Origin: a virus
Reading direction: 5' to 3' (one strand)
Virus record (IMG/VR): IMGVR_UViG_3300036820_000012
Location: 16,724 to 80,723 of that record
DNA length: 64,000 nt
The notes beneath the pieces were generated by a model that made no database searches, was not told where the DNA came from, and worked only from the letters and a program-made list of their open reading frames with translations. The position numbers were made by a program, and so were the translations under genes. Positions 1,734 to 54,645 of the stretch are shown piece after piece; position 1 is the first letter of the stretch, and every line of letters begins with the position of its first letter.

Positions 1734-2093
1734 ATGAGCGTGACCCTCACCACCATCGAGGCGACTGGCGACGCCATCGCGGTCCTGCGTGACGCTGGCT
1801 ACCCCGGCGCGTACTTCGCCCCGGACGGCGGCGTCACGGTCGAGAGCCACGAGTCCGCATACCCCGGAATCCAGCGCGCCGATCACACGCCGAAGGCGAT
1901 CCGCACCGTCGTGCGGAAGGCCGCGCCGCGGACCGATCTCAGCGCCGCCACCGTTGCGCTCCGCTCGCTGCCGGGCGTCCTCCAGATCTCGGCGGACGCC
2001 GACACCGTGATCGTCATCCGCAACAAGGATCACTGCGGCCATCCCGGCTGCGTCTTCACGACGCCGCACACCCATGGAGGGATCGCGCCGTGA
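1734..2093 (+). CDS. Hypothetical protein
   Basis: AGGAG RBS, ATG at 1734, GC3-rich codons. Confidence 0.7.
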   Translation: MSVTLTTIEATGDAIAVLRDAGYPGAYFAPDGGVTVESHESAYPGIQRADHTPKAIRTVVRKAAPRTDLSAATVALRSLPGVLQISADADTVIVIRNKDHCGHPGCVFTTPHTHGGIAP

Positions 2094-2305
2094 GCGTCAC
2101 CGCCCGCGACATCCTTCTCGACGCCGATACCTTCCGCCGGGCGTATCCGCACTGGCCGCACCCAGAGCCAGAGCCCGTCACCAGCGACTCGCGCTACGAC
2201 TCCGTCCGGACCATGCTGCACAACCGCTACAACGGCGTCATCCCAGTCACTGACGAGATGGTCCTGGCAGTCCTGGACGCGATAGACGAGGAGGCAGGGC
2301 AGTGA
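2090..2305 (+). CDS. Hypothetical protein
   Basis: Start/stop overlap chain. Confidence 0.7.
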   Translation: MSVTARDILLDADTFRRAYPHWPHPEPEPVTSDSRYDSVRTMLHNRYNGVIPVTDEMVLAVLDAIDEEAGQ

Positions 2306-2559
2306 CCGACCTACCGCGCGGCTCACTGAAAGCTGGAGCCGAAGCCATCGACGGCGACCGCAAGACCGCCGAGGCAGTCCTGCGCGCAGCAATGCCGCAC
2401 ATCGAACGGGACGTGCGCCGCCAGATGGCCCGGCAGATGAAGAACGGCGCCATCGGCCTGGACCTGTACGGCACCTACTACGCGTGGCAGCGGTCACTGA
2501 GCCACGCTGCGCGGTCCGGGCTGCTGCCTGAGCCCGCAGATACGGAGGAGTCCCGATGA
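2302..2559 (+). CDS. Hypothetical protein
   Basis: Start/stop overlap chain. Confidence 0.7.
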   Translation: MTDLPRGSLKAGAEAIDGDRKTAEAVLRAAMPHIERDVRRQMARQMKNGAIGLDLYGTYYAWQRSLSHAARSGLLPEPADTEESR

Positions 2560-2861
2560 CCAGCCAGCCCACACCCGACACCCTCGCCGCGCTGCTGCGC
2601 GAGACCTTCGCCGAGTACGACGGCGACCACATGGGCTTCCACGTCTACAAGGCAGTCCTTCGCCAGGTGATCATCGTGGAGATCCGCGGCGTCGACCTGC
2701 TGCCGTTCAATCCCGGCGAGGGGCCGAGGGCGGTCCTGGATGACTACGCGGCGGTGATCGCCGCTGCGGGCCATGAGGTGTGCAGCACGGGCTCGGTGCT
2801 CATGGTGTCGCCCACCCCTCCCACCTCCCCACCTGACCCAGCGCTGAGGAGCGAGCAATGA
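2556..2861 (+). CDS. Hypothetical protein
   Basis: ATGA overlap, GGAGGAG RBS. Confidence 0.7.
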   Translation: MTSQPTPDTLAALLRETFAEYDGDHMGFHVYKAVLRQVIIVEIRGVDLLPFNPGEGPRAVLDDYAAVIAAAGHEVCSTGSVLMVSPTPPTSPPDPALRSEQ

Positions 2862-3262
2862 CCGAGACCACGACTACGGAGCGAGCGTTTGACCGCCGCT
2901 GCCTTTGCCGCAAGCCCATCAGGAAACTGGCCCCCGAGAACCCCGAAGGCAACGCGTGGGAGGACGAGAAGGGCGACCTCTGGCACGAAGGCGGTGCGCT
3001 GCACGCACCAGACCCGGCATGGAAGCCACCTGAGACCGCGCCCTTCGTTTACGGCGTCGTCTTCTGCGGCGCCGACTGGGTCAGCGACTACTTCGGCGGC
3101 TGCCACGCGCACTCCCGCTACCGGGTGGAGCGCCCCGGCGACGGCTACGAGCCAGCCGAAGCGTGCCCAGCCCATCTCGCTGACATGATCGCCTACCTCG
3201 TGGACGGCGATGACGTGGCGGCCACGGTGCACGTCCGGTGGGACGAGGAGGACTCCCCGTGA
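2858..3262 (+). CDS. Hypothetical Cys/His-containing protein
   Basis: ATGA overlap, RBS. Confidence 0.7.
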   Translation: MTETTTTERAFDRRCLCRKPIRKLAPENPEGNAWEDEKGDLWHEGGALHAPDPAWKPPETAPFVYGVVFCGADWVSDYFGGCHAHSRYRVERPGDGYEPAEACPAHLADMIAYLVDGDDVAATVHVRWDEEDSP

Positions 3263-3621
3263 CCACCGCCACCCTCCCGCTCCAGCCGGGCTGCATCCGT
3301 CTCATGCTCATCTGGGACGTGGCAGGCATCAGGATCATCAACGCGGACGTCTTCACCGACGCCGCCGAGGCAGCCCAGGCCCGCGCGAACCTGCGGGCCG
3401 GCCTGGATAGCGAGTTCCGCGACTATCCCGTCTCGCTGCCGGGGTTCATCTCGGCCGCATCCCTCCGTGAGCATCTGGAACGGCAGGCAGGCATCGAGCA
3501 CGAACTCGGCGACGACTACTCCGAGCGCGACATGAACGACGCGTACGAGCACTGGGGCGCTGCCCGCGGGTTCCGGGAAGCCGTCAAGCACATCGATCAC
3601 GAACTGGAGACATCCCGATGA
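3259..3621 (+). CDS. Hypothetical protein
   Basis: GTGA overlap, RBS. Confidence 0.7.
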   Translation: MTTATLPLQPGCIRLMLIWDVAGIRIINADVFTDAAEAAQARANLRAGLDSEFRDYPVSLPGFISAASLREHLERQAGIEHELGDDYSERDMNDAYEHWGAARGFREAVKHIDHELETSR

Positions 3622-3911
3622 CCACCCGCCAGCCACCCCCTGACCGTGACGCCCCCGAGGGCTACCACCTGGTCGCCGTCCCCGAGGCCATAGGGCACTG
3701 GAGGGTGGCCGACGGGAAGCCGTGCCGCTATGCCCGGCAGGGTCACATCCGGTGCGGCCAGCCGTCTGTCGCCGAGATCCAGCGCGGAACCGTGCGGCGC
3801 CAGTGGTGGGCCTACTGCGAAACCCACGCCTACAGCCGCTGGGTCGAGAACGGGCGCGTCTGGGTCTGGATCCTGCGGGCCGACGATGACGAACTGGAGA
3901 CGGCCCGATGA
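3618..3911 (+). CDS. Hypothetical protein flanked by direct repeats
   Basis: ATGA overlaps; near-identical 33-bp boundary sequence at both ends. Confidence 0.7.
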   Translation: MTTRQPPPDRDAPEGYHLVAVPEAIGHWRVADGKPCRYARQGHIRCGQPSVAEIQRGTVRRQWWAYCETHAYSRWVENGRVWVWILRADDDELETAR

Positions 3912-4120
3912 CCACCGAAGCTCTGGACTGGCCAGCCGCACGCAAGGCCATCGACACCGCCATAGAACGCGCCCGGATCGAGATCGGGCGCACGGTCGAG
4001 GGTGCGCTGTACGAGCTCGGTGACGTCGGGAAGCGCATCGAGGCCACCATCCTGAGCCAGGTGCAGGACTCCCTGGACGACATAGACCAGACCGTGCCAC
4101 CGGAGGAAGACGATGGCTGA
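3908..4120 (+). CDS. Hypothetical protein
   Basis: ATGA overlap. Confidence 0.7.
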   Translation: MTTEALDWPAARKAIDTAIERARIEIGRTVEGALYELGDVGKRIEATILSQVQDSLDDIDQTVPPEEDDG

Positions 4121-4361
4121 CGAGCGCCCCCCCAACATCCACCTCGGCGCCGAGGCGACCGGCATCAAGGTCGGCCACGCCTGGACCGATGAGTGGGGTA
4201 CCACCCACGGCTCGCTGGACTTCGCCGCCTACAGCGACATCGTGTTCCACGACCCGCACCAGCCGCGCCACGTTGCTGCACTGCTGGAGGAACTCGCCGC
4301 AGCGATGGAGGCCGAGGCCGCAAGAGCGGAAGCAGAGAAGGAGGAACCCGATGGCGACTGA
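4113..4361 (+). CDS. Hypothetical protein
   Basis: RBS, overlap chain. Confidence 0.7.
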   Translation: MADERPPNIHLGAEATGIKVGHAWTDEWGTTHGSLDFAAYSDIVFHDPHQPRHVAALLEELAAAMEAEAARAEAEKEEPDGD

Positions 4362-4848
4362 GACTGACCCCGTAACCGCCGAACTGGCCAAGATCTGCGC
4401 GATCACGGACGCGGCGACGCAAGGCCCGTGGGAGCACCTGCTTGACAACGAGGTCACCTACGGCTATCGGCGCGAAGGCTCCAAGCACATCGCTACCTGG
4501 ATCGCCACAGCCGGCGAAGGTGACGAGGACATCAGCGAGGAGGAGGACGACGCCAACGCCGACTTCATTGCTGCTGCCCGGTCCTACGTCCCCGTTCTCC
4601 TCGCTGCGGTTGAAGCGGTGCTGGCGCTCCACCAGCCGGGGCCCTTCGTGCTGCTCGGCGCCCTGTGCAAGGACCATGCGGTGTGCCGCGACTTCTCGAT
4701 TACCAGCAATGAGGCAGATCGCGTCAGGGCCTGCCCGGACTGCTCGGCGACCGTCAGGGTCTCCTGCACCTGCGGCTACCCGGATATCGAACGCTGCCCG
4801 CACCGTGAGGCCATCACCGCCAAACTGCTCAGCGAGGAGGGGGAGTGA
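4351..4848 (+). CDS. Ead/Ea22-like phage protein with Cys-rich C-terminus
   Basis: AATQGPW...ANADFIAAARSYVPVLL motif. Confidence 0.55.
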   Translation: MATETDPVTAELAKICAITDAATQGPWEHLLDNEVTYGYRREGSKHIATWIATAGEGDEDISEEEDDANADFIAAARSYVPVLLAAVEAVLALHQPGPFVLLGALCKDHAVCRDFSITSNEADRVRACPDCSATVRVSCTCGYPDIERCPHREAITAKLLSEEGE

Positions 4849-5201
4849 ACAAGGAAGCGCTGGACTGGCTCGGCGAGGTCGTCCCCGTCTTCCGGGAGGC
4901 ACCGGCCGCCAACTATCCGCTGGCCGCCATCGGCGGATGGTCGCACGCCAATACCACTGTCCGCGAGGTTGCCGCCGAACCGGAGTTCTGGGAGTACGCG
5001 GACCTGCCGCGAGCCGAACTGGAGGCGCGCATCGCGGCAGCCGACGGCATCGAGCCCGCCCACGCGCTCTACGGCTGCACGTTCCTGTCTGGCGAGGTTC
5101 TTCTCGTTGACGGCTGCCACCGCTGGGCTGCCGCCGCAGCCCTCGGCTTCACGATCGCGCCGGTAGAGATGGCGTTCGAGCTGGTGAAGACCGATGACTG
5201 A
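4845..5201 (+). CDS. ParB/Sulfiredoxin-like domain protein
   Basis: LLVDGCHRWAAAAALGFTIAPV resembles the DGHHR..AA...G...PV motif. Confidence 0.6.
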   Translation: MNKEALDWLGEVVPVFREAPAANYPLAAIGGWSHANTTVREVAAEPEFWEYADLPRAELEARIAAADGIEPAHALYGCTFLSGEVLLVDGCHRWAAAAALGFTIAPVEMAFELVKTDD

Positions 5202-5433
5202 CACCGCCTTCGTCACCGCCTTCCTCGAGGACGTCCGCGCCCAGGCACAGCAGGGCATGGTTCCCGCTGACGACGCGCTCAGGCTGCTGGCCATCGCCCA
5301 GGGCGTGCTGGACCTCGCCGACGGCTGGGAGGACAAAGCCACCACGCAGTACGCAGCTGTCCGGCAGTGCGCGGACGAGCTAAGGCGGCGGGTGGAACGG
5401 GAACTGCTCGGCGAGGGGGAGAGCGATGCCTGA
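5194..5433 (+). CDS. Hypothetical protein
   Basis: Overlap chain. Confidence 0.65.
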   Translation: MTDTAFVTAFLEDVRAQAQQGMVPADDALRLLAIAQGVLDLADGWEDKATTQYAAVRQCADELRRRVERELLGEGESDA

Positions 5434-16703: not shown

Positions 16704-16847
16704 TCGCCGCCTCCTCGCCAGGGTTTGCCGCCTCCCGGCGAGGGGGTGTGGGTGCTTGTTTCGGCTCAGCCAGCCGCCGGTCCTTGTCCGGACCGCGCTA
16801 GCGTAGCACGAGGAAGCAAACTCGTCATATCGGCACTTCTTAGCCCT

Positions 16848-46060: not shown

Positions 46061-47437
46061 TTACACGCTGACGGAGACGCGGTACAGGCGCCCGAGGAAC
46101 TTCAGCGCGCGGACCGCGAAGGTCGTGTCACCGATCAGGGCGTACGGCAGCGTGTCCGGCGAACTGGTCGTCGGGTACACGTCCAGGGGAACGGCCTCGC
46201 GGACGTACGGGCGCACGACGTTGCCCGGGTCGCGGCTGATCAGGTAGAGGTTCTCCTGGCCGACCGAGGGCGGCAGCATGGCCGCGACCGTCCCGATGTA
46301 GGCCGTGGGCAGGATCGACGGCACAACCGACCCGCTGGACTGCTGCGGGATGAGCGCCGCGCCAGTGTCCACGATCTGGTTGGTGAGGATCTGCGTCACG
46401 CCATCGGACTGCAGGCCCACCGTGGCGTCCACGTAGCCGAGGAACGTCTCGCTGCCCGACGCGCCAGCGGCTGCGGTGCGCCACACCTTGTACAACTGAG
46501 GCGCCAGGCCATCGAGGCCGGTCGGCGGGGTGAACGACAGCACCGCGGCGTTGCCGGTCGTGACCGCCTGCGACACCTCGACCGAGGGCGCGATCTCGCC
46601 CTGGCGGGCGATGATGGCGCTGACCTGGTACTTATACGTGGCGTTCAGCGTCGCCCCGGAGTACGTCGCGGTGGACGGGGTGACCGTGCCGACCGAGTAG
46701 CCGCGCATCGCCTGGAACGACGACTTGACGATCGGGACGTTGCGGTAGGACGGGACGATCAGGCCCGCCTCGACTTCCACCTGGTCCACGAACCGCTGCT
46801 GGTTGGTGAGCAGCTGCGAGATCTTGGACTGGCCGGTGGACGAGGTGACGAACATCCACGAGTCGTCCTGGATGGGCATGGCGGCATTGGACTCCACCAT
46901 GTCGATGAGCTCATCGAGGAACGCCAGGGTCAGCGTGTTGCCGGCCTTGTCGATGACGTTCTGGGTGCCGCCGCTGAAGGTGTTGATGAGCGTGTCGAGA
47001 CCGTCGAACTGCGGCTGCGCCTGGTTGAGCGTCGCCGCTGCGTTGCCCCAGCCGATGAACGTCTCCAGGTCCCAGTAGTACCCCTTGATGGCGCCCTCGA
47101 TTTCAGTCGCCCTCAGGTCCTGGATGATCGCCTTGGTCACGGCTTCCGCGTAGCCCGTGACGGCGCCGACCGACTCGATGTGCTTCATGTAGTAGTTGAG
47201 CTGGGCGTACACCGAGCTCGTAACCGGCCGAGCGCCGCCATCCGGCACCGCGCCACCGGACGGGACCGACGTCCTCTGGTTGAAGAAGTACTGGTCCGCG
47301 TCCCACTGCTGCGTCGGGATCGACCGGCACAGCGGGGCGTACCGGCGCTGATACTCGACCAGCACCGGGGAGATGATCTTCGGGATGAATGGCTGTGCGC
47401 CTACGGCGTTCAGCGCTTCCCGCAGTTCGCTGGGCAT
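46061..47437 (-). CDS. Major capsid protein with inserted FN3/Ig-like domain
   Basis: WGNA...QFDGLDTLI...TLAFLDELID...YRNVPIVKS; position after protease/scaffold. Confidence 0.85.
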   Translation of the reverse strand: MPSELREALNAVGAQPFIPKIISPVLVEYQRRYAPLCRSIPTQQWDADQYFFNQRTSVPSGGAVPDGGARPVTSSVYAQLNYYMKHIESVGAVTGYAEAVTKAIIQDLRATEIEGAIKGYYWDLETFIGWGNAAATLNQAQPQFDGLDTLINTFSGGTQNVIDKAGNTLTLAFLDELIDMVESNAAMPIQDDSWMFVTSSTGQSKISQLLTNQQRFVDQVEVEAGLIVPSYRNVPIVKSSFQAMRGYSVGTVTPSTATYSGATLNATYKYQVSAIIARQGEIAPSVEVSQAVTTGNAAVLSFTPPTGLDGLAPQLYKVWRTAAAGASGSETFLGYVDATVGLQSDGVTQILTNQIVDTGAALIPQQSSGSVVPSILPTAYIGTVAAMLPPSVGQENLYLISRDPGNVVRPYVREAVPLDVYPTTSSPDTLPYALIGDTTFAVRALKFLGRLYRVSVSV

Positions 47438-47545
47438 GCTGAAGTCCTTCCGGTTGAGATCTGGATCGGTGCGACCGTCTCCGCCGGAAGGCACCACGGC
47501 ATGAGCGCGTGGCGGTCAGGTGAAACTCAGGGATGAAGCCCGGGT

Positions 47546-49429
47546 CTAGCCGAACTTCTGGGCGCGGTCGCCGAAGACGTAGGCGGCCAGGTACGGCGCC
47601 GAGTGCCGGCGCAGTTCGGTCGCCGACAGGTCCTTCGCGTCCTTGTCCGGGAACGTGCCGGGCATGCCGTGGGCGTTCAGTTCCGGCTGCCCGCCGTCCG
47701 CCCTGGGCGCACGGTGCTCGTCTACCGAGCCCGTGGTCAGGCCCTTGCGGTCGGTGCCGACACCGCCCTCGGCGAGCTTCTGGCGCTCGGTGACGAGGGC
47801 TTCGGCGACCAGGCGGCTGACCTTCTGGTCCTCGGTCTCGGTCGCGCCGTCGATCTCGGCCGGGTGCTGCTCGCTGGCGAGCGCAGCCTTCACGCCCTCG
47901 GCGACCAGGCGGGCGATCCGTGCGTCGTCGGCCTCGGTGGCGGCAGCCGTGGCGGCAGCCTCTTCCGCAGCGGCGCGCTCAGCCGCAGCGCGGTCCTCGT
48001 CGCGCTTGGCCAGCGCGGTGGCGATGGCCTCGGCGAGGGTGTTCGGGTCGAGCGCCGGCGCAGCCTGCTCCGCCGGGGTGGTGGCGTCCGTCATCTCGGA
48101 CTCCTCCTTTGTGTTGATGGCGGCAGCCGGGCTGGCGGCCGGGTCGGTTTCGGTCTCGGGCTCGTCGTCCGGAGCGGACTCGCCGCCGTCGTGGTCGGTG
48201 TCGGAAGCGGTCGCGCCAGGGACGTCGATGTCGCCGTCCATGTCCGGGTCCAGCGCTGCGAGTGCCTTGCACGCGGCATCCGCGGCGGCCTTGAGGACCG
48301 GGTCCAGGTCGGAGGGGTCCATGGAGTAGCTGGACAGGCTCAGGCTCACCGGGCCGTTCGATGCACTGATGCACCACGAGCCGGCGCAGGACGGGTCACC
48401 GAAGTACTCCGCGACCGCCTCGGTCACCTGCACGGCCGGGTCGAACGTCCAGCCTGCGGACTCGCTGTTGACGGTTACGCCGAAGCGCTTGAGCGCGGAC
48501 ATGATCCGGCCCTTGATGCGCTTGAGCTGGGCCGAGGAGTACTTGGACGCGTTCGACTTCTGGTTGATGTACGCCCACGCGGCCTTTGCGTTGGCCTTGC
48601 TCGAAAGGTCGTACCGGGACTTCTTGTCCGACTGATAGCCCGGGTCCGCGTACGTCTTGCCGCTCCCGGACAGTCCGCTGCCGCGCTTGGACATCGCCAG
48701 CGCCGACTCAGTAAGCCCCGCACAGGTCACACAGTCGCCGTCCTCGAGCACGTGGCCTGGCTGAGGCACGAACGCCAGCGTCTCGGCCGGTGCCGCCTGC
48801 TTGCAGCACGTGTGGCCCATCTCGTCGCATGACTGCTCAGGCTTGGCGGGCGCCGTTTTCTCGGTGAAGGTCACGAGTGCCTCCTCGGCGCTCTCAAAGA
48901 TGGGGACGCGCTCGGTGGTCTCCGACGCACCGCTGCGGTCCGCCCACGCGAAGGTGTCGTTCTCGGCGCCGTCAACGCCCGGGTCCTTCGTCCAGTCCAG
49001 GCCGGCCAGTTCCAGGCCGTCGCCGGACTCCGCGGGCTCGCCATCCGGGCCCCTGACCTTGCGGACAGTGCCGGTCCAGAAGCCGCGGATCGACACGCCC
49101 TTCAGGTGCGGATCATCGCCGTCGCTGGTGTCGATCAGCGACGCTATGTCCCGGCCGGCCGTCGTGTCAGCGACTGCGGCGGTATAGCGGGCGTTGCCGT
49201 CCTCGTCCAGGCTGACGCCGGTCAGGTGAGCGACGATCTGGCGGCTGTCATCCCCGGCGCCGTGGTGCGACAGCATGACCAGCGGCTTGCTGCCGTCGCG
49301 GATCCGCTCCTGCGCCGAGGCAACCGCCCTGGCGATCATGGGCCGTGTGTAGAGACGGCGGTTACGGCTGACGCCGGGGCGCAGGGCTACGCCGCCGATG
49401 GTCGCGATGACCTTAGCCACGGCTGCCAC
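47546..49429 (-). CDS. Prohead protease/scaffold fusion with DUF6582-like domain
   Basis: GVSRNRRLY...H...GVSIRG...LDWTKDPG protease; YADPGYQ.DKK.RY..; acidic scaffold C-terminus. Confidence 0.8.
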   Translation of the reverse strand: MAAVAKVIATIGGVALRPGVSRNRRLYTRPMIARAVASAQERIRDGSKPLVMLSHHGAGDDSRQIVAHLTGVSLDEDGNARYTAAVADTTAGRDIASLIDTSDGDDPHLKGVSIRGFWTGTVRKVRGPDGEPAESGDGLELAGLDWTKDPGVDGAENDTFAWADRSGASETTERVPIFESAEEALVTFTEKTAPAKPEQSCDEMGHTCCKQAAPAETLAFVPQPGHVLEDGDCVTCAGLTESALAMSKRGSGLSGSGKTYADPGYQSDKKSRYDLSSKANAKAAWAYINQKSNASKYSSAQLKRIKGRIMSALKRFGVTVNSESAGWTFDPAVQVTEAVAEYFGDPSCAGSWCISASNGPVSLSLSSYSMDPSDLDPVLKAAADAACKALAALDPDMDGDIDVPGATASDTDHDGGESAPDDEPETETDPAASPAAAINTKEESEMTDATTPAEQAAPALDPNTLAEAIATALAKRDEDRAAAERAAAEEAAATAAATEADDARIARLVAEGVKAALASEQHPAEIDGATETEDQKVSRLVAEALVTERQKLAEGGVGTDRKGLTTGSVDEHRAPRADGGQPELNAHGMPGTFPDKDAKDLSATELRRHSAPYLAAYVFGDRAQKFG

Positions 49430-49447: not shown

Positions 49448-49807
49448 TCAGCTGTAGCCGATCGTGACCTGGCCTGCGGTGATGGTCCCCGAGGCGTTGG
49501 TCAGGTAGATCCCGTTCACTGCCGGCAGGTCAACGGTGACGATCGCGCCGATGACGTTGTTGGCGGTGCTGGCGACGGGGAGGATGAACAGCGGCGTGCC
49601 GGACCCGGCGCTGGCGTTGTCCCAGAACTCAAGGACGCCACTGGAACCCACGAGTGCCACGACGACCATGATCTTGAGCAGCCGGCCGGCGCTGCCCTTG
49701 ATGACCTGGCCGGTGAGGCTGGTGGTCAGGGTCACAGACGTGGTGAACGCGGACGAGGACGGGAAGCCAGCGTCGTCGTAGGTGGTGAAGATGCCGTTCT
49801 TGGCCAT
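49448..49807 (-). CDS. Small beta-rich virion protein
   Basis: GQVIKGSAGRL...WDNASAGSGT...NGIY; head module position. Confidence 0.6.
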   Translation of the reverse strand: MAKNGIFTTYDDAGFPSSSAFTTSVTLTTSLTGQVIKGSAGRLLKIMVVVALVGSSGVLEFWDNASAGSGTPLFILPVASTANNVIGAIVTVDLPAVNGIYLTNASGTITAGQVTIGYS

Positions 49808-49854
49808 TGCCGGAACGCCCCTCTCAAGGGTCGTGGTTACTGGTGAAGGGCGGC

Positions 49855-50271
49855 CTAGCGGCCGATGAGCTCTATCGAGGTGCCGGTGACGGTGCCGCCG
49901 GAACAGGTCCAGGCGACCTGCCCCCAGCTGCCCAAGACGACGCCAGGCGATCCGTGCAGGCCCGCGGTGACGGTCGTGGCCCCGGCGGCGTCCAGGGTTG
50001 TGGACGCGACCGGGTACGGGTTGCCGGAAACGAACACGTTCAGGACCACGGCGAACGCAGGCGTCCCGGTCACGGCGCCGACGGTGACGTACAGGGTCAC
50101 GTCGGTGACGTCGCGCAGGTCGACCGGGGTCTCGGCGTTGGCCGCCTGCTCGCCTGATCCTGCGGCGATCGTGCCGTACGCGCCCGAATTCCCGGCCGCA
50201 CTGATCGTCGTGCCGGTTCCGGAGCGCGCGAGCGACCAGAGGCCCTTTGAGCGGTGGTCGATGTTGCCCAC
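49855..50271 (-). CDS. Small beta-rich virion protein
   Basis: GGAGG RBS; head module position. Confidence 0.6.
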   Translation of the reverse strand: MGNIDHRSKGLWSLARSGTGTTISAAGNSGAYGTIAAGSGEQAANAETPVDLRDVTDVTLYVTVGAVTGTPAFAVVLNVFVSGNPYPVASTTLDAAGATTVTAGLHGSPGVVLGSWGQVAWTCSGGTVTGTSIELIGR

Positions 50272-50280
50272 GTCCGCCTC

Positions 50281-52368
50281 CTAGGCTGCGAGATAGGCGG
50301 AATAGGCGTCAGCGGGAAGCGGTGAGCGGCCATCCGGGACGATCACGCAGCGGCAGCCGAAGTGATCGGGGCAGGCAGGCATCTCGTCAAGCGGGTACGG
50401 GCCATGAGCCTCGTATCCGTCACAGACGCTGCAGTTATGGACACGAATTCCAGCGGCGTAGAATTCGTGCGCTTGTTCGACTTCGATGTCGTAAACTGGG
50501 ATTGAGCCAATCCCAACGACGCAAAGACTGGTGACCGACCCGTCATGGCAATCCGCTATGAATGCGCTCAGTGCGGCAAGGAATTCACCAGGCATTCCCG
50601 CATCATTGGCAAGCGCGCGTTCTGTGGCCGGGAGTGCTACCAGCGAGCGTCCATCAAGCACCCCGACCGGGAGTGCCCCCAGTGCGGGCGCACCTTCAGT
50701 CCCAGGAAGGGATCGCGATCCGGCCCTCGTACCGGCAACCCGAACCGGGCCTACTGCACTCGCGAATGCTACGAAGCCAGCCGTGTCAACTCGGTCACCA
50801 AGACGTGTCCCGTCTGCGGCAAGGACTTCACTATCACGAAGGGTGCCATCGCTGACCGGTACAGGAGATGCTCGGCCGCTTGCAGGGACATTGATGCGAT
50901 CTACGTTGACTGCGAGCGGTGCGGCAAGCGGTTCCGGGCCGAGAAGCATCTCAACCGCCGCCACTGCTCCGAGGAATGCCGGCGACCGCCTGTCTACGTG
51001 ACCTGCATGACGTGCGGCGAAGAATTCCGCCCAACCCCCAGCGAGGCTGCCGGGCGCCGGTTCTGCTCCGTGGCGTGCTATCGGCGGTTCCGGGGCGAGA
51101 CGACCCTCGAAGCCAAGATCCGCGTCTGCCTTGAGGGACTCGGCATCGACTTCGAGCAGGAGATCCCGGTCGGCCGATGGGCAGTCGACTTCGCGCTGCG
51201 GTCGCACATGATCGCCATTGAGGCTGACGGCGACTACTGGCATGAAATCAGCGCCGCGCGGGACCGCAAACGCGATGCGGCTCTGACCCGGCTTGGTTGG
51301 CAGGTCGTGCGCTTCGGTGAAAGCGAGGTGAACGACGCGGCTGACCTTGGCAAGCTCGTTCTCGAGCGTCTGCACGACGTCACCGGGCTGCATCTGGCCG
51401 ATCTCGCGCCAGCCGTCCCGCGTCCAGACGGGGTGATCATCGGTCGCGAGCACCGACCGGCCTTCCGCGTGAATCGCGGTCAGCCCTCCGCCGTACTGGC
51501 GGCAGGTGGCAGCGGCTATACGGTGCTCACCTTGTGGAGTGAGGATGAACTCGCCGCACTGAAGTGACTCGATCGGCCGGTCACCATCGGGCGTCGCCAC
51601 CTTCGTTCCCGCTGGGAAACAAACGCGGTTGTCGCCGGCCGTGACCCAGTTAGCGCGCTCCACGCCGTACTGGGACATCACACTCAGCGCTGACGCCGAG
51701 ATGGACGACGCCATTGAGTGCGTGAGCACTACGCCGAGCGGCTGCGCGGTCCTCAGTGCCGCAGTGATTGCCTTCGCCATCGCGGCAGCCGTGGCACCTG
51801 CGGCGGCCAGGTTCACCAGGACGCCAGCCAGCGCATAGGCGATGCCTGCGGTGATGGCCGTCGCTACCTCGGCGGGTACTGCCTGCCCGGGATTCCGCTG
51901 GCCATCCGCAACGGCAGCGTTCCAGTCGAACGATCCGTCAGCACCTGCCGCAGACGCGGCCACGGCCAGCGTGGAAGCGAATCCCTCGCCAGCGGATGCC
52001 GTGAGGGCCGTCGTGATGGCAGCGAGGAAGTCAGCGAGGTGCGGTGAGTCCGCCGTGCCGGCGAGCATCCCGGACGCCACAGCAGCAGCCAGGGCGCGGA
52101 GTTCCTTCTTGCGCTGCACCGCCGTGTCGCCGTCAGTTGCCGGGGCGGGGCTGCCATCGGAGGTCATGTACGCCTCGCGGCGGAACAGCGCGACCATCGC
52201 AGCCACGTCGAGATCCGCAACCAGCTCAAGCCACGCCTTCGTGACCGCGGCTACCTGTGTGGCGTAGAGCGCGTCCTGGCGGTCGTAGACGTCTTTCCAG
52301 GTTCCGGTGAGCTGCCCCAGGATCAGGGTCGTCTCATCGGTGCTCATGCAGGCAGCAGTCCCGTCCAT
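50281..52368 (-). CDS. Mu gpF/SPP1 gp7-like minor head protein, intein-containing precursor
   Basis: Spliced sequence WVTAGDNRV|CSVC...Y......P.CP.HFGCRC...P restores the family motif. Confidence 0.9.
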   Translation of the reverse strand: MDGTAACMSTDETTLILGQLTGTWKDVYDRQDALYATQVAAVTKAWLELVADLDVAAMVALFRREAYMTSDGSPAPATDGDTAVQRKKELRALAAAVASGMLAGTADSPHLADFLAAITTALTASAGEGFASTLAVAASAAGADGSFDWNAAVADGQRNPGQAVPAEVATAITAGIAYALAGVLVNLAAAGATAAAMAKAITAALRTAQPLGVVLTHSMASSISASALSVMSQYGVERANWVTAGDNRVCFPAGTKVATPDGDRPIESLQCGEFILTPQGEHRIAAATCRQYGGGLTAIHAEGRSVLATDDHPVWTRDGWREIGQMQPGDVVQTLENELAKVSRVVHLAFTEAHDLPTKPGQSRIAFAVPRGADFMPVVAVSLNGDHVRPQREVDCPSADRDLLLEVDAESLKADADLGFEGRLAPEPPIARHGAEPAPGSLAGGWAEFFAARHAGHVDRRSPAFLGAVAAVEMLLGPEPLAAPLAVNVDRINVPASGRASPVPVSDGTLRDSEVLAADGTRLGDRVDTAGFVAFASAVGPVRVAGTRAGSRSLPGTEGAPALGALPVGVLDGRSLVALPATERALANDAGMPGEFLAALSAFIADCHDGSVTSLCVVGIGSIPVYDIEVEQAHEFYAAGIRVHNCSVCDGYEAHGPYPLDEMPACPDHFGCRCVIVPDGRSPLPADAYSAYLAA
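50434..51621 (-). mobile_element. Intein (396 aa, Cys1 ... His-Asn, Cys+1)
   Basis: Block A CFPAGTKV, block B ATDDHPVWT, block F VYDIEV, block G FYAAGIRVHN/C. Confidence 0.93.
50545..51567 (+). CDS. Zinc-finger-repeat DUF559/Vsr-like endonuclease, antisense inside the intein
   Basis: Five CxxCGxxF...C(S/T/G)xxC repeats then E...FEQE......VDF.....IAIEADGDYWH...RD.KRD..L...GW.VVRF.E. Confidence 0.88.
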   Translation: MAIRYECAQCGKEFTRHSRIIGKRAFCGRECYQRASIKHPDRECPQCGRTFSPRKGSRSGPRTGNPNRAYCTRECYEASRVNSVTKTCPVCGKDFTITKGAIADRYRRCSAACRDIDAIYVDCERCGKRFRAEKHLNRRHCSEECRRPPVYVTCMTCGEEFRPTPSEAAGRRFCSVACYRRFRGETTLEAKIRVCLEGLGIDFEQEIPVGRWAVDFALRSHMIAIEADGDYWHEISAARDRKRDAALTRLGWQVVRFGESEVNDAADLGKLVLERLHDVTGLHLADLAPAVPRPDGVIIGREHRPAFRVNRGQPSAVLAAGGSGYTVLTLWSEDELAALK

Positions 52369-52447
52369 GCGCCCTCTGCTTCCGGCGCTGCGTCACCGCA
52401 GCCGGTGAAACGGAGTGATGACTGCCCTTGCCGGCGCATCGGCCTGC

Positions 52448-52753
52448 TCAGAGCGTCGTGCCGCCTCGGAGCGCCCACCCGGAGGCGTGCGGCGCGATGT
52501 CCTCGCCAGCGATGTGCTCAGCGACAGGGCGAGACGGCCCCAGCGTCCGCAGCATCGTCCAGGCGCATGCCCGGACTGCCTCAAGGTCACGGACGGCCAG
52601 GACGGGGAAACCGCGGACGGTCTCGCCTTCAACCGTTGCGTCCGCGTCCCAGAGGTCGCCGTCGTGGCGGGTGTAGGTGACCATGGCGGGAGGCAGGTGG
52701 GTGGTTTCGAGGACCGGCTCGGGTGTGCCGATGCGGTGCCGCTCGGCGCTCAA
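52448..52753 (-). CDS. Hypothetical protein
   Basis: ORF between portal and minor head genes. Confidence 0.5.
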   Translation of the reverse strand: MSAERHRIGTPEPVLETTHLPPAMVTYTRHDGDLWDADATVEGETVRGFPVLAVRDLEAVRACAWTMLRTLGPSRPVAEHIAGEDIAPHASGWALRGGTTL

Positions 52754-52888
52754 GCGATGACCTTTGACAGGAACGGTGCTGCGGCGGCAGCGGTGAGCGG
52801 CCAGTTAGGCAGGTTCGACGGTTCCCATGCTGGCTGCGTGCCCGGAATGGAATACGGCTGCTCGGGTGGTGGCTGCTGGCTCACGAGC

Positions 52889-53083
52889 TCACCCCGCCTC
52901 GTGGATCTCCGTCCAGCCGGCCGGGTACTGGTGGCCGCCTGCCGGGTGGGACGTGACCGCGAACATCAGCGATGTCCCGCGCTCAGCCAGTCGCGTGTTC
53001 ACCTTGTCGACCAGGCGGCGTGCCTGCTCAATGTCGGCGTAGTCCTCGGCGGTGGGGCTGGAGTCAGGTGGCGGCTGGCTCAT
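52889..53083 (-). CDS. Hypothetical protein
   Basis: ATGA overlap with portal. Confidence 0.55.
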   Translation of the reverse strand: MSQPPPDSSPTAEDYADIEQARRLVDKVNTRLAERGTSLMFAVTSHPAGGHQYPAGWTEIHEAG

Positions 53084-54645
53084 CGGCGCTCCGTGAACGC
53101 GCGCCGGAATGACTCAGCGAGGCGGTCCCGGTAGATGCCCTCGGCGCTGCTCACCTGCTTGCCCTTGGCGCCGGGCTTCTTGCCGGTGGCGCCAGGCTTG
53201 GCGTCGTCGTCATCGGGCTTGTCCTGGTCGTCGTCCTGGTCTGCGTCGTCCTTGGCGTCATCGTCCTGGCCTGGCGGTGGCGGGACGGGCAGCAGGCCGC
53301 TTCCGCCCCCGGCCGCAGCCTGGACCAGCGCGGCGGACAGTGCCTTCAGGTCGGACGTCAGGACCATGTTCTGGCGGTTGACGATGAACGCATCGTCGCC
53401 GCCGTCAACGGCAGGCTCGCCGATCTCGGTGCGGTACTTATTCAGGGTGTATGCGCCATCGCGCAGCCGTATGTCACGGATCTGCTCGACGACCATCGAG
53501 TCCCGGTAGTCCACGTCGCCGAACTTGGAATGCCAGTCCTCAACGCCGAAGCCGTTCTTCGCGATGCAGAAGTTCAGCTTCTCCAGGACCAGCTCAGCGA
53601 TTGGCTGGCAGGTGTTGAGCTCAAGCGTTCGGTGCTGCGAATCGCCAGTGCCGCCGCCGAGGTTGCCCGACTCGATGACCATCGCCTCAGCCGGCGGGAC
53701 GCCGTACTGGGCCAGGATCTCGTCGCGCGCCGATTCCTTCGCCGACAGGACATCGGTTAGCTTGCCGGTCTGCAGTTCCTGGAGCGTCGCCCCGCCGCGG
53801 GTCATCCACGGGACGCCGATGTTGCGCGACCCGAGGTTCTGCGCGGCGGCCTGGTTGCGCCACTTCTCGAGCTCGGTCTCGCTCCTGGTGGCGGGGAAGT
53901 CGGCGTGCAGCGCCGGCGGCAGGCCTTTCCTCAACATCTCTTTTTCCGTGGCCGCAGCGAACAGCCAGATCGTGATCGGTGTCATCGCGGCGTGCGTCGG
54001 GCCGATGCCGAACACGCCCGGCCGGGCCGAGTCCAGCGAGATGTGGATGACCTCGCGCTCCTCGAAGACCGCCCGCTGGCCGTAGTCGGTGACCTGCACG
54101 TAGCGCAGCACCTTGCCGTGCTCGTCGGCGACGGGGGTAGTGGTCGGGCAGTCGAGGTTGTACAGCGCGATCGGCTGGCTGCCAGACCAGACGACCTCGA
54201 GGTATGCGTCGCCGAACACGAGCAGGTCAGCGATCAGGTTCCGCAGCAGCTGGCGGATGTCCTGCGTCGGGTTGCAGAACGAGTAGAACCGCTCCAGGGC
54301 GACGACGGCCGGGGGCTTGTCCGGCATCTTCTGGTCGCCTTCGCCCTCGTCAGCGTCCCAGTCGCTGACAAGACCGCCGGCCGTAATCGTTCGGGCGATG
54401 ACCTGCACGCACGTCCACGACCACGGGCAGGTCAAATACGCCTGCCACAGTTCCTGCAGGGTGGAGCGCCGGTCGGTGCCGGTCGCCTCGCCCATCGTGG
54501 CTGACTGCTCGTTTATCCCGCCCTGCGGGATGCCCGGGATGAACCCGGACCGCTCTGGGAGGGTGGTCCGCTGAGCCGGGGCGCGCGACTTCGCTACCTC
54601 GGTGACGCCTTCGCGTTCACGGCGCAGCGAGGGAAGGAAGCGCAC
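53080..54645 (-). CDS. Portal protein (HK97-like)
   Basis: DLLVFGDAY...EVIH....FGIGP...ILAQYGVPP...TLNKYR..IG. Confidence 0.92.
   Translation of the reverse strand: MRFLPSLRREREGVTEVAKSRAPAQRTTLPERSGFIPGIPQGGINEQSATMGEATGTDRRSTLQELWQAYLTCPWSWTCVQVIARTITAGGLVSDWDADEGEGDQKMPDKPPAVVALERFYSFCNPTQDIRQLLRNLIADLLVFGDAYLEVVWSGSQPIALYNLDCPTTTPVADEHGKVLRYVQVTDYGQRAVFEEREVIHISLDSARPGVFGIGPTHAAMTPITIWLFAAATEKEMLRKGLPPALHADFPATRSETELEKWRNQAAAQNLGSRNIGVPWMTRGGATLQELQTGKLTDVLSAKESARDEILAQYGVPPAEAMVIESGNLGGGTGDSQHRTLELNTCQPIAELVLEKLNFCIAKNGFGVEDWHSKFGDVDYRDSMVVEQIRDIRLRDGAYTLNKYRTEIGEPAVDGGDDAFIVNRQNMVLTSDLKALSAALVQAAAGGGSGLLPVPPPPGQDDDAKDDADQDDDQDKPDDDDAKPGATGKKPGAKGKQVSSAEGIYRDRLAESFRRAFTERR

Follow-up and report, generated by a model that had tools for sequence, protein, structure and literature searches.

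The window considered here, a stretch of 64,000 nucleotides (nts) that is part of an 80.7-kb viral contig of IMG/VR (IMGVR_UViG_3300036820_000012, positions 16,724 to 80,723 of the record; GC ~68%, CheckV completeness estimate 83%) obtained from one soil metagenome run, contains on its minus strand the gene of a MuF-like minor head (capsid morphogenesis) protein interrupted by an intein, and on its plus strand, opposite the interior of that intein, a gene for a nuclease of the homing-endonuclease family. Taken as a whole, the evidence makes it very probable that this is a composite selfish element, formed by a cis-splicing class-1 intein within the MuF-like gene and by a homing-endonuclease gene (HEG) of the free-standing type, which runs antisense to the intein and in the same codon register. 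As a kind, the layout is already published: a preprint by Gosselin, Arsenault and Gogarten (bioRxiv 10.1101/2025.01.02.630785) describes full inteins with an anti-sense VSR-like endonuclease in the MuF-like minor capsid proteins of actinobacteriophages, and the novelty of the architecture, which an earlier sequence-only reading of this DNA had implied, has to be given up. What the window adds is further evidence and a new lineage, not a discovery.

The head gene is a single open reading frame (ORF), in which the intein extends from Cys250 (codon 51619-51621) to Asn645 (codon 50434-50436) and is followed by Cys646 (the positions of all the features are collected in Table 1). All the intein motifs were found, namely CFPAGTKV, block B (T309-D-D-H312), block F (VYDIEV) and VHN|C, and the residues C250, T309, H312, H644, N645 and C646 are invariant among 17 relatives. 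The removal of the intein leaves 249 + 50 = 299 aa. A search with the N-extein recovered ten intein-free proteins (P0006-P0015) of 290-299 aa, 65-93% identical, one of which (P0015, 66% identity) is encoded on the locus L085; in the alignment, all of them pass straight from ...GDNRV to C-x-V-C..., without the 396 intein residues. Since these alleles join at GDNRV|C, the boundaries of the intein are exact, and the 299-aa spliced form exists as a natural allele. The C-extein conserves C646, C649, H669 and C672-C674. In limits, motifs and product, then, the analysis bears out the sequence-only reading, which had described one 695-aa minor head frame with a complete intein whose excision would rejoin GDNRV to CSVC in a protein of 299 aa.

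With respect to what lies between the two lobes of the intein, Pfam finds only Hint on the minus-strand protein, with no LAGLIDADG and no HNH domain. In the AlphaFold2 model of the precursor, the N lobe is a well-predicted, beta-rich fold, residues 614-645 of the C lobe have a pLDDT of 58-85, and residues 355-593, which belong to the filler between the lobes, one of 24-38. The best match of this model in Foldseek is the split intein gp41-1 (6qaz, TM 0.70); there are 37 matches at E<=0.001, those listed being inteins or Hint-type domains, and for the filler the search gave no structural match beyond Hint. The size and position of the C lobe agree with the usual site of endonuclease insertion, or of splitting, in inteins. 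The interpretation of this interior as a degenerate in-frame nuclease domain was ruled out, as it has no domain match, no fold, and a reversed pattern of substitutions. It had been described from the letters alone as a shadow frame devoid of LAGLIDADG and HNH motifs, and it behaves as one: with so low a pLDDT, and with its first codon position the least conserved, it does not resemble a folded domain under purifying selection.

On the opposite strand, the product of the HEG matches DUF559 (PF04480; E 1e-12, 48.3 bits for a cut-off of 20.6) and REase_MTES_1575 (E 1e-10) over residues 190-265, as well as PHROG 1271 (E 2e-24). Four residues, D215, E226, D228 and H233, do not vary among 22 relatives, and D240 is almost invariant; these active-site residues align with D196, E206, N208, H213 and the D222 region of the homing endonuclease I-Bth0305I (PMC3239194), whose catalytic domain (3r3p) is matched in the PDB by a profile made from three HEG sequences (E 1.2e-10). 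In an AlphaFold2 model built with the 22 relatives (mean pLDDT 81), the prediction is confident for residues 1-285, and the pLDDT falls below 50 for residues 291-340; in Foldseek this model matches 3r3p (TM 0.79), 3hrl (TM 0.75) and Vsr (1cw0, TM 0.56). The region of the five zinc ribbons, with a pLDDT mostly of 86-95 and two blocks of 10 residues in the 70s, is presumably the DNA-binding part of the protein. The possibility of a chance shadow ORF on the plus strand is ruled out by the domain E-values, by the GC content of the third codon positions (GC3) and by the conservation; what the data support is a real and conserved nuclease gene of the homing-endonuclease family, for which a cleavage function is predicted. 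Profile searches and structure models of the two strands thus give Hint only on the minus strand, and DUF559 with zinc ribbons on the plus strand, in accordance with the five zinc fingers and the DUF559/Vsr-like nuclease, in the same register, that had been anticipated there.

The relatives of this gene are distant. When the HEG or the N-extein was used as a single sequence, the searches of IMG/VR gave 0 matches; the searches based on alignments of the HEG succeeded, and the scan yielded 218 relatives, the best 80 of which were taken for the locus analyses. Among GenBank phages the HEG matches only free-standing genes, ~26% identical, which lie beside DNA methyltransferase genes in mycobacteriophages; the Mycobacterium phages Malithi, Donovan and Kari are among those that carry them, most of these genes being annotated as hypothetical. 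In L003, a relative of low GC, the HEG ends right after the DUF559 domain, and because of this the 55-residue tail of the HEG in the window is best read as a stop-less read-through opposite the Hint N lobe, which is probably what it is.

The two frames interlock with common codon boundaries, in such a way that residue h of the HEG lies opposite residue 609-h of the intein. The ATG of the HEG is the complement of the CAT of the invariant His608, and with the 37 residues of the Hint C lobe beyond it, the gene is found at the usual endonuclease or split site of inteins. At the other end, the stop TGA (51565-51567) pairs with the TCA codon of Ser268, so that the HEG terminates antisense to the Hint N-domain and on the complement of a serine codon, just as the sequence-only reading had proposed. 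The last ~55 codons of the HEG, and ~28 codons of the folded nuclease, are antisense to the Hint N lobe, and according to the two models a segment of about 28 codons would be constrained on both strands. The GC3 signature (0.77-0.87) belongs to the plus frame from 50545 to ~51260 and to the minus frame above ~51290. In other words, ~770 bases encode two proteins on opposite strands, and one of the products is merely a stop-free spacer. Extended antisense overlaps with demonstrable selection are, to our knowledge, uncommon in genomes of any sort.

That the open frame of the intein is selected can be seen when the family is considered. There are 16 loci which have both Hint lobes opposite the HEG in one frame, and 15 of the 16 are stop-free over 410-479 aa, with a GC of 0.43-0.69; in L023 (GC 0.31) the intein frame that covers the HEG is also open. 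With the background codon use taken from long ORFs in the short flanks, 1.5-7.7 antisense stops would be expected per gene, and the probability of finding none at a locus goes from 0.22 to 1.5e-4. The codons TTA, CTA and TCA, by whose avoidance the nuclease gene keeps the intein frame free of stops, are entirely lacking in the 15 antisense HEGs situated within inteins (0/4283 codons; locus GC 0.31-0.69), whereas they amount to 205/6559 codons (3.1%) in 27 relatives that are free-standing or have a broken antisense frame, the high-GC members of which have 1-5 of them each. It is this difference which indicates that the dual coding is maintained by selection; and a selection for openness only makes sense if translation of the precursor has to traverse the filler and splicing has to follow.

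The substitutions lead to the same place. In the HEG frame the nucleotide identity is 0.54-0.72 at codon positions 1 and 2, against 0.28-0.49 for position 3; over the filler, read in the intein frame, this pattern is reversed, position 1 being the least conserved, and in the Hint lobes and the exteins it is that of normal coding sequences (in the N lobe positions 1 and 2 are more conserved than 3). Comparison of the sequences thus shows the nuclease frame to be the selected one within the filler, the intein frame being selected only to remain open. Selection for the open intein frame is established, by these sequence comparisons, at the level of the family and not from the window alone. The family constitutes a natural test, in which a nuclease gene dispenses with three sense codons to the benefit of the opposite strand, over a range of GC from 31% to 69%.

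Regarding mobility, alleles that are ~92% identical in their exteins differ by the presence or absence of the whole element, and this hints at the sporadic pattern expected of a recent gain or loss. A search with the intein gave three proteins, 43-47% identical across the whole intein, filler included, which have it at the same site in diverged MuF proteins, their N-exteins being barely alignable with that of the window. As for other arrangements in these head proteins, P0001 (881 aa) is a MuF protein with the same intein and with an N-terminal domain of the 2'-5' RNA ligase superfamily (PF13563), and P0004 and P0005 (723 and 721 aa) are Phage_Mu_F proteins with an intein at another site (...HWN|AVPEG ... 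SN|CRS), whose interior reads like a shadow frame and may conceal another overlapping gene.

In the element as we conceive it, translation of the precursor would continue across the linker, and the intein would be spliced out by its Hint lobes, leaving the 299-aa head protein. The nuclease would be made separately, from an antisense transcript, and would cut the intein-free MuF allele of a co-infecting phage near GDNRV|C, after which the repair would copy the intein and the HEG together. The -1 register would have survived as the layout with the fewest codon restrictions, because only three sense codons have to be avoided, and this would explain the convergence of independent lineages on it. 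Of the dual-coding interpretation advanced in the sequence-only reading, the structural and evolutionary parts are supported, and the splicing, the expression of the nuclease and the cleavage are its predictions.

Several points weigh against this interpretation. In the window alone, 2.2-2.6 TTA, CTA or TCA codons would be expected in the HEG from the codon use of the phage itself, which gives a probability of ~0.07-0.10 of finding none, and the open frame taken by itself is not statistically remarkable; the warning that openness alone is no evidence of selection therefore stands for the window, although not for the family, where the codon counts do reveal selection. The loci are related, so that their individual probabilities are not fully independent and cannot simply be multiplied, although at the protein identities of 35-58% found among them the synonymous sites are saturated. 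In L003 the HEG is intact in spite of 15 stops that interrupt the intein frame, so an open frame is not a requirement for every lineage. A scan of the window gave no sigma-70-type promoter, terminator or clear Shine-Dalgarno sequence around the HEG. Lastly, if the model of the precursor is correct, a disordered linker of 257 residues might slow or impair splicing.

Other explanations have to be weighed in this light. A free-standing HEG could have landed backwards in a mini-intein, its frame being open simply due to the rarity of stop complements at 68% GC, with no splicing and with a head gene that is crippled or dispensable. The chance of an open shadow frame at the GC of the window, which is the ~0.07-0.10 given above, the long and unfolded filler, and the origin of the contig in a metagenome assembly estimated as 83% complete would all be in keeping with such a dead end, but the layout is open in relatives down to a GC of 0.31, where the offending codons are 0/4283 against 3.1% in the free-standing or broken group, the splicing residues are invariant and both Hint lobes are under purifying selection, and the exteins are intact and 92% identical to those of the intein-free alleles, so that we consider it very improbable. 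It is also conceivable, but in our opinion unlikely, that the nuclease is kept without homing, either as a domesticated or exclusion nuclease or by vertical inheritance, the open frame merely protecting the head gene. Vertical inheritance is indeed reported for some VSR-like groups (10.1101/2025.01.02.630785), and family members which are only 35-58% identical suggest old associations; this would fit poorly, however, with a nuclease frame under purifying selection that keeps its catalytic residues, and with the fact that alleles with 92%-identical exteins differ by the presence of the whole element.

The example of L003 (GC 0.43), in which the same layout has 15 stops and separate ORFs in one frame for the N and C parts, together with gp41-1, a split intein, as the closest structural match of the Hint domain, leads to another idea, that each half of the head protein is produced on its own and the two are then united in trans, the linker not being translated through. 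For the window we attribute to this only a very slight probability: its frame is open throughout, no internal start with a ribosome site is seen for the C part, and the selection against stops that 15 relatives show would be meaningless unless read-through were needed. There is, finally, the suspicion that falls on any metagenome-assembled viral contig, that an assembly chimera or a sequencing artefact has joined a nuclease gene to an intein, an outcome which the sequence-only reading had itself foreseen as contrary to its proposal. A Logan contig, from an independent assembly of the same soil sample, spans 49800-52800 unbroken, at a depth of 55 and with 0 differences, and the same layout is present on more than 15 contigs from different samples, which reduces the probability of an artefact to practically nothing. 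Consequently, the composite of a splicing intein and an antisense homing-endonuclease gene is the interpretation that we maintain in what follows.

As regards the expression of the HEG, the TAAACT found 50 nt upstream of its ATG in the window was rejected as a promoter, since the same letters, on the other strand, encode the conserved Val-Tyr of block F. In four relatives (L003, L012, L017 and L030) there is a sigma-70-like promoter at a constant distance of 30-40 nt upstream of the HEG ATG and inside the intein ORF, and these sites therefore must also be stop-free on the other strand; the same four have AGGAG-like Shine-Dalgarno sequences ahead of the ATG. Given that relatives have promoter-like and Shine-Dalgarno-like sites, a separate transcription of the antisense strand is plausible for the family, and for the window we infer that it may likewise occur.

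The nuclease family is also found in other arrangements. In L003 (IMGVR_UViG_3300035698_008285, GC 0.43; 1911-5246) the element occupies the same MuF site, with an antisense HEG at 2874-3737 (-) whose 2 TTA and 13 TCA codons produce the 15 stops of the intein frame, and with the N part (1911-3137) and the C part (3681-5246) as separate ORFs of one frame; it might represent a split intein derived from an intein with an antisense gene, or a decaying copy, and if it were a working trans-splicing pair, inteins of this type would be a natural route to split inteins. In a second group of loci, L035:1765-4374 (with the same layout on L037), L041, L042:2162-5791, L047 and L051, a relative of the nuclease is encoded on the strand that also carries the MuF intein, the intein frame being the HEG frame +2; these have 0 stops in the intein frame, versus 6.5-13.8 under synonymous recoding, which left the frame open in <=0.1% of 2000 trials. 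In L053, L056, L060, L063, L070 and L075 the nuclease match is in frame inside ORFs of 632-1788 aa, and in L053 and L056 it is in frame with the Hint N lobe, from which it appears that the family exists also as an ordinary domain within the intein frame. In L006:19-2388 (-), an intein-free MuF gene ends in a stop, and downstream there is an antisense HEG flanked by stop-ridden remnants resembling the Hint N lobe, where the nuclease may be a relocated or decayed copy. A wider generalization, which we offer tentatively and regard as rather doubtful, would be that the family presents a series of intein housings kept by selection, all by way of codon choice (in frame, +2 sense, antisense, and antisense with a broken frame as in L003), and that the antisense position may serve to time the expression of the nuclease independently of the late head operon, for example by means of its own promoter and convergent transcription.

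Table 1. Features of the intein-bearing head gene and of the antisense nuclease gene in the window, and sigma-70-like promoters in four related loci (positions of the latter refer to each locus).
Feature	Positions	Strand	Evidence or description
Precursor ORF of the MuF-like minor head (capsid morphogenesis) protein, 695 aa + stop	50281..52368	-	ORF list; open throughout
N-extein, residues 1-249, ends ...WVTAGDNRV	51622..52368	-	End-to-end alignment with P0006-P0015, 65-93% identity
Class-1 intein, residues 250-645, 396 aa	50434..51621	-	Pfam Hint_2 E 1.4e-11; splicing residues invariant
Hint N-terminal lobe, residues 250-351	51316..51621	-	AlphaFold2 pLDDT 80-93, beta-rich; normal coding substitutions
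Intein-frame filler, residues 352-608; lies opposite the HEG, stop-free, predicted unfolded	50545..51315	-	pLDDT, GC3, substitution pattern
Hint C-terminal lobe, residues 609-645, 37 aa, begins directly after His608	50434..50544	-	Register, alignment, AlphaFold2
C-extein, residues 646-695, opens with Cys +1, part of the conserved CxxC ... H..CRC motif	50284..50433	-	Alignment with intein-free alleles
HEG, 340 aa + TGA	50545..51567	+	Pfam, PHROG, GC3, 218 IMG/VR relatives
Five CxxC...CxxxC zinc-ribbon units, residues 1-180	50545..51084	+	Cys pairs invariant or nearly so (n=22 relatives)
EDxHD / Vsr-like nuclease domain, residues ~185-285	51097..51399	+	Profile, Foldseek, catalytic residues
HEG C-terminal tail, residues 286-340, antisense to Hint N lobe, outside the fold	51400..51564	+	pLDDT 38-42; minus-frame GC3
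Overlap predicted to be folded on both strands, ~28 codons (Hint 324-351, nuclease 258-285)	51316-51399	both	Confident model ranges and register
Promoter, L012	1847-1875		-35 TTGACG, spacer 17, -10 TATAAT, 11/12, TG before -10
Promoter, L030	2225-2252		-35 TTGAAT, spacer 16, -10 TATAAT, 10/12, TG before -10
Promoter, L003	3805-3777		-35 TTGTAA, spacer 17, -10 TATAAT, 10/12, without TG before -10
Promoter, L017	3443-3471		-35 TTGCCT, spacer 17, -10 TATAGT, 9/12, TG before -10

As to the neighbours of the interrupted gene, the portal gene (53080-54645, PF04860) is immediately upstream, and downstream there are a 627-aa DUF6582 protein (47546-49429, -) and then an SU10-type major capsid protein (46061-47497, -). 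The N-extein of the window alone has 0 Pfam matches, but its intein-free homologue P0015 reaches 28.1 bits with Phage_Mu_F (PF04233), just below the cut-off of 29.6, and P0004, one of the proteins with an intein at another site, is listed with PF04233. A tblastn search of GenBank phages with the precursor gave distant Hint matches only, in Vibrio phages, and the phage has no obvious kinship to the cultured actinophages. One of the intein-free alleles, P0013, carries a name from an Opitutales metagenome-assembled genome, and because of this the host is possibly non-actinobacterial; the actinophage setting that had been assumed for this DNA therefore has no support.

Returning to the preprint (10.1101/2025.01.02.630785), its supplementary table lists entries such as "minor capsid, MuF-like ... 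VSR -1 ORF" in Gordonia phages such as Angelicage, and it reports an in-frame interior without recognisable structure and a VSR-like protein matched to 1CW0 and 3R3P. The window resembles these inteins in its MuF-like host protein, its contiguous class-1 intein, its antisense Vsr-like nuclease in the same register and its unstructured interior. In gp15 of Angelicage we find a 316-aa intein before a CRC motif (...HEVIN|CRC), with an antisense ORF of 291 aa in the same register, which is not annotated in the phage record and which has no BLAST similarity to the nuclease of the window. The intein of the window, on the other hand, stands before a CxxC motif (...GDNRV|CSVC); its nuclease has five zinc ribbons where the N-terminal portion of that of Angelicage reads like a helix-turn-helix; and it comes from a soil metagenome phage whose host is possibly non-actinobacterial, in contrast to the actinobacteriophages of the published cases. 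Due to the other insertion site and the zinc-ribbon array, the window can be regarded as a separate lineage of the kind described in the preprint. In that work a sense layout out of frame is given only for an endonuclease VII-like gene, and the main text contains no mention of codon usage, GC content or promoter, the term 'stop codon' being used only in relation to the decay of the endonuclease (10.1101/2025.01.02.630785); for this reason the selection test, the spread to low GC and the promoter sites are additions.

Antisense endonucleases in inteins have also been cited from earlier work, in the form of anti-sense LAGLIDADG genes in the dnaX of Synechocystis and in a SpoVR-like protein of Chloroflexus (Gorbalenya, 1998; Gogarten et al., 2002; both as cited in 10.1101/2025.01.02.630785). 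To judge from that citation, these share with the window an endonuclease ORF opposite the intein, and they differ in the nuclease family and in the hosts. The 'fractured genes' of Dassa et al. (2009; PMC2677866) are split inteins with a free-standing Vsr-like HEG between the halves and all the coding regions on one strand; mainly of phage origin, they have in common with the window a Vsr-like/EDxHD gene at the same position of the intein, and the model in which a free-standing endonuclease gene invades an intein, but in them a stop and a restart on a single strand divide the intein, while the intein frame of the window is continuous (52368 to 50284) and its HEG is antisense. I-Bth0305I, the prototype of the EDxHD homing endonucleases (Taylor et al., 2011, PMC3239194; PDB 3r3p), has the same fold, the same catalytic residues and the same bipartite design of DNA-binding part and nuclease, known for the protein of the window from sequence and model; the gene of that enzyme lies in a group I intron of recA, and its DNA-binding motifs are of the NUMOD type, in contrast to a gene placed inside an intein and an array of five zinc ribbons. 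The combination of such an array with a small EDxHD nuclease may be of interest to those who search for compact sequence-specific nucleases, and since gene callers permit only one of two heavily overlapping ORFs, other hidden antisense genes are likely to have been missed.

With the canonical bifunctional inteins of the LAGLIDADG or HNH type the element of the window shares an endonuclease sequence between the Hint lobes and a presumed homing cycle, and it differs from them in that their nuclease is an in-frame domain, whereas here it does not form part of the intein polypeptide. The family, with its avoidance of three codons, speaks in favour of an origin of bifunctional inteins in the invasion of mini-inteins by free-standing endonuclease genes.

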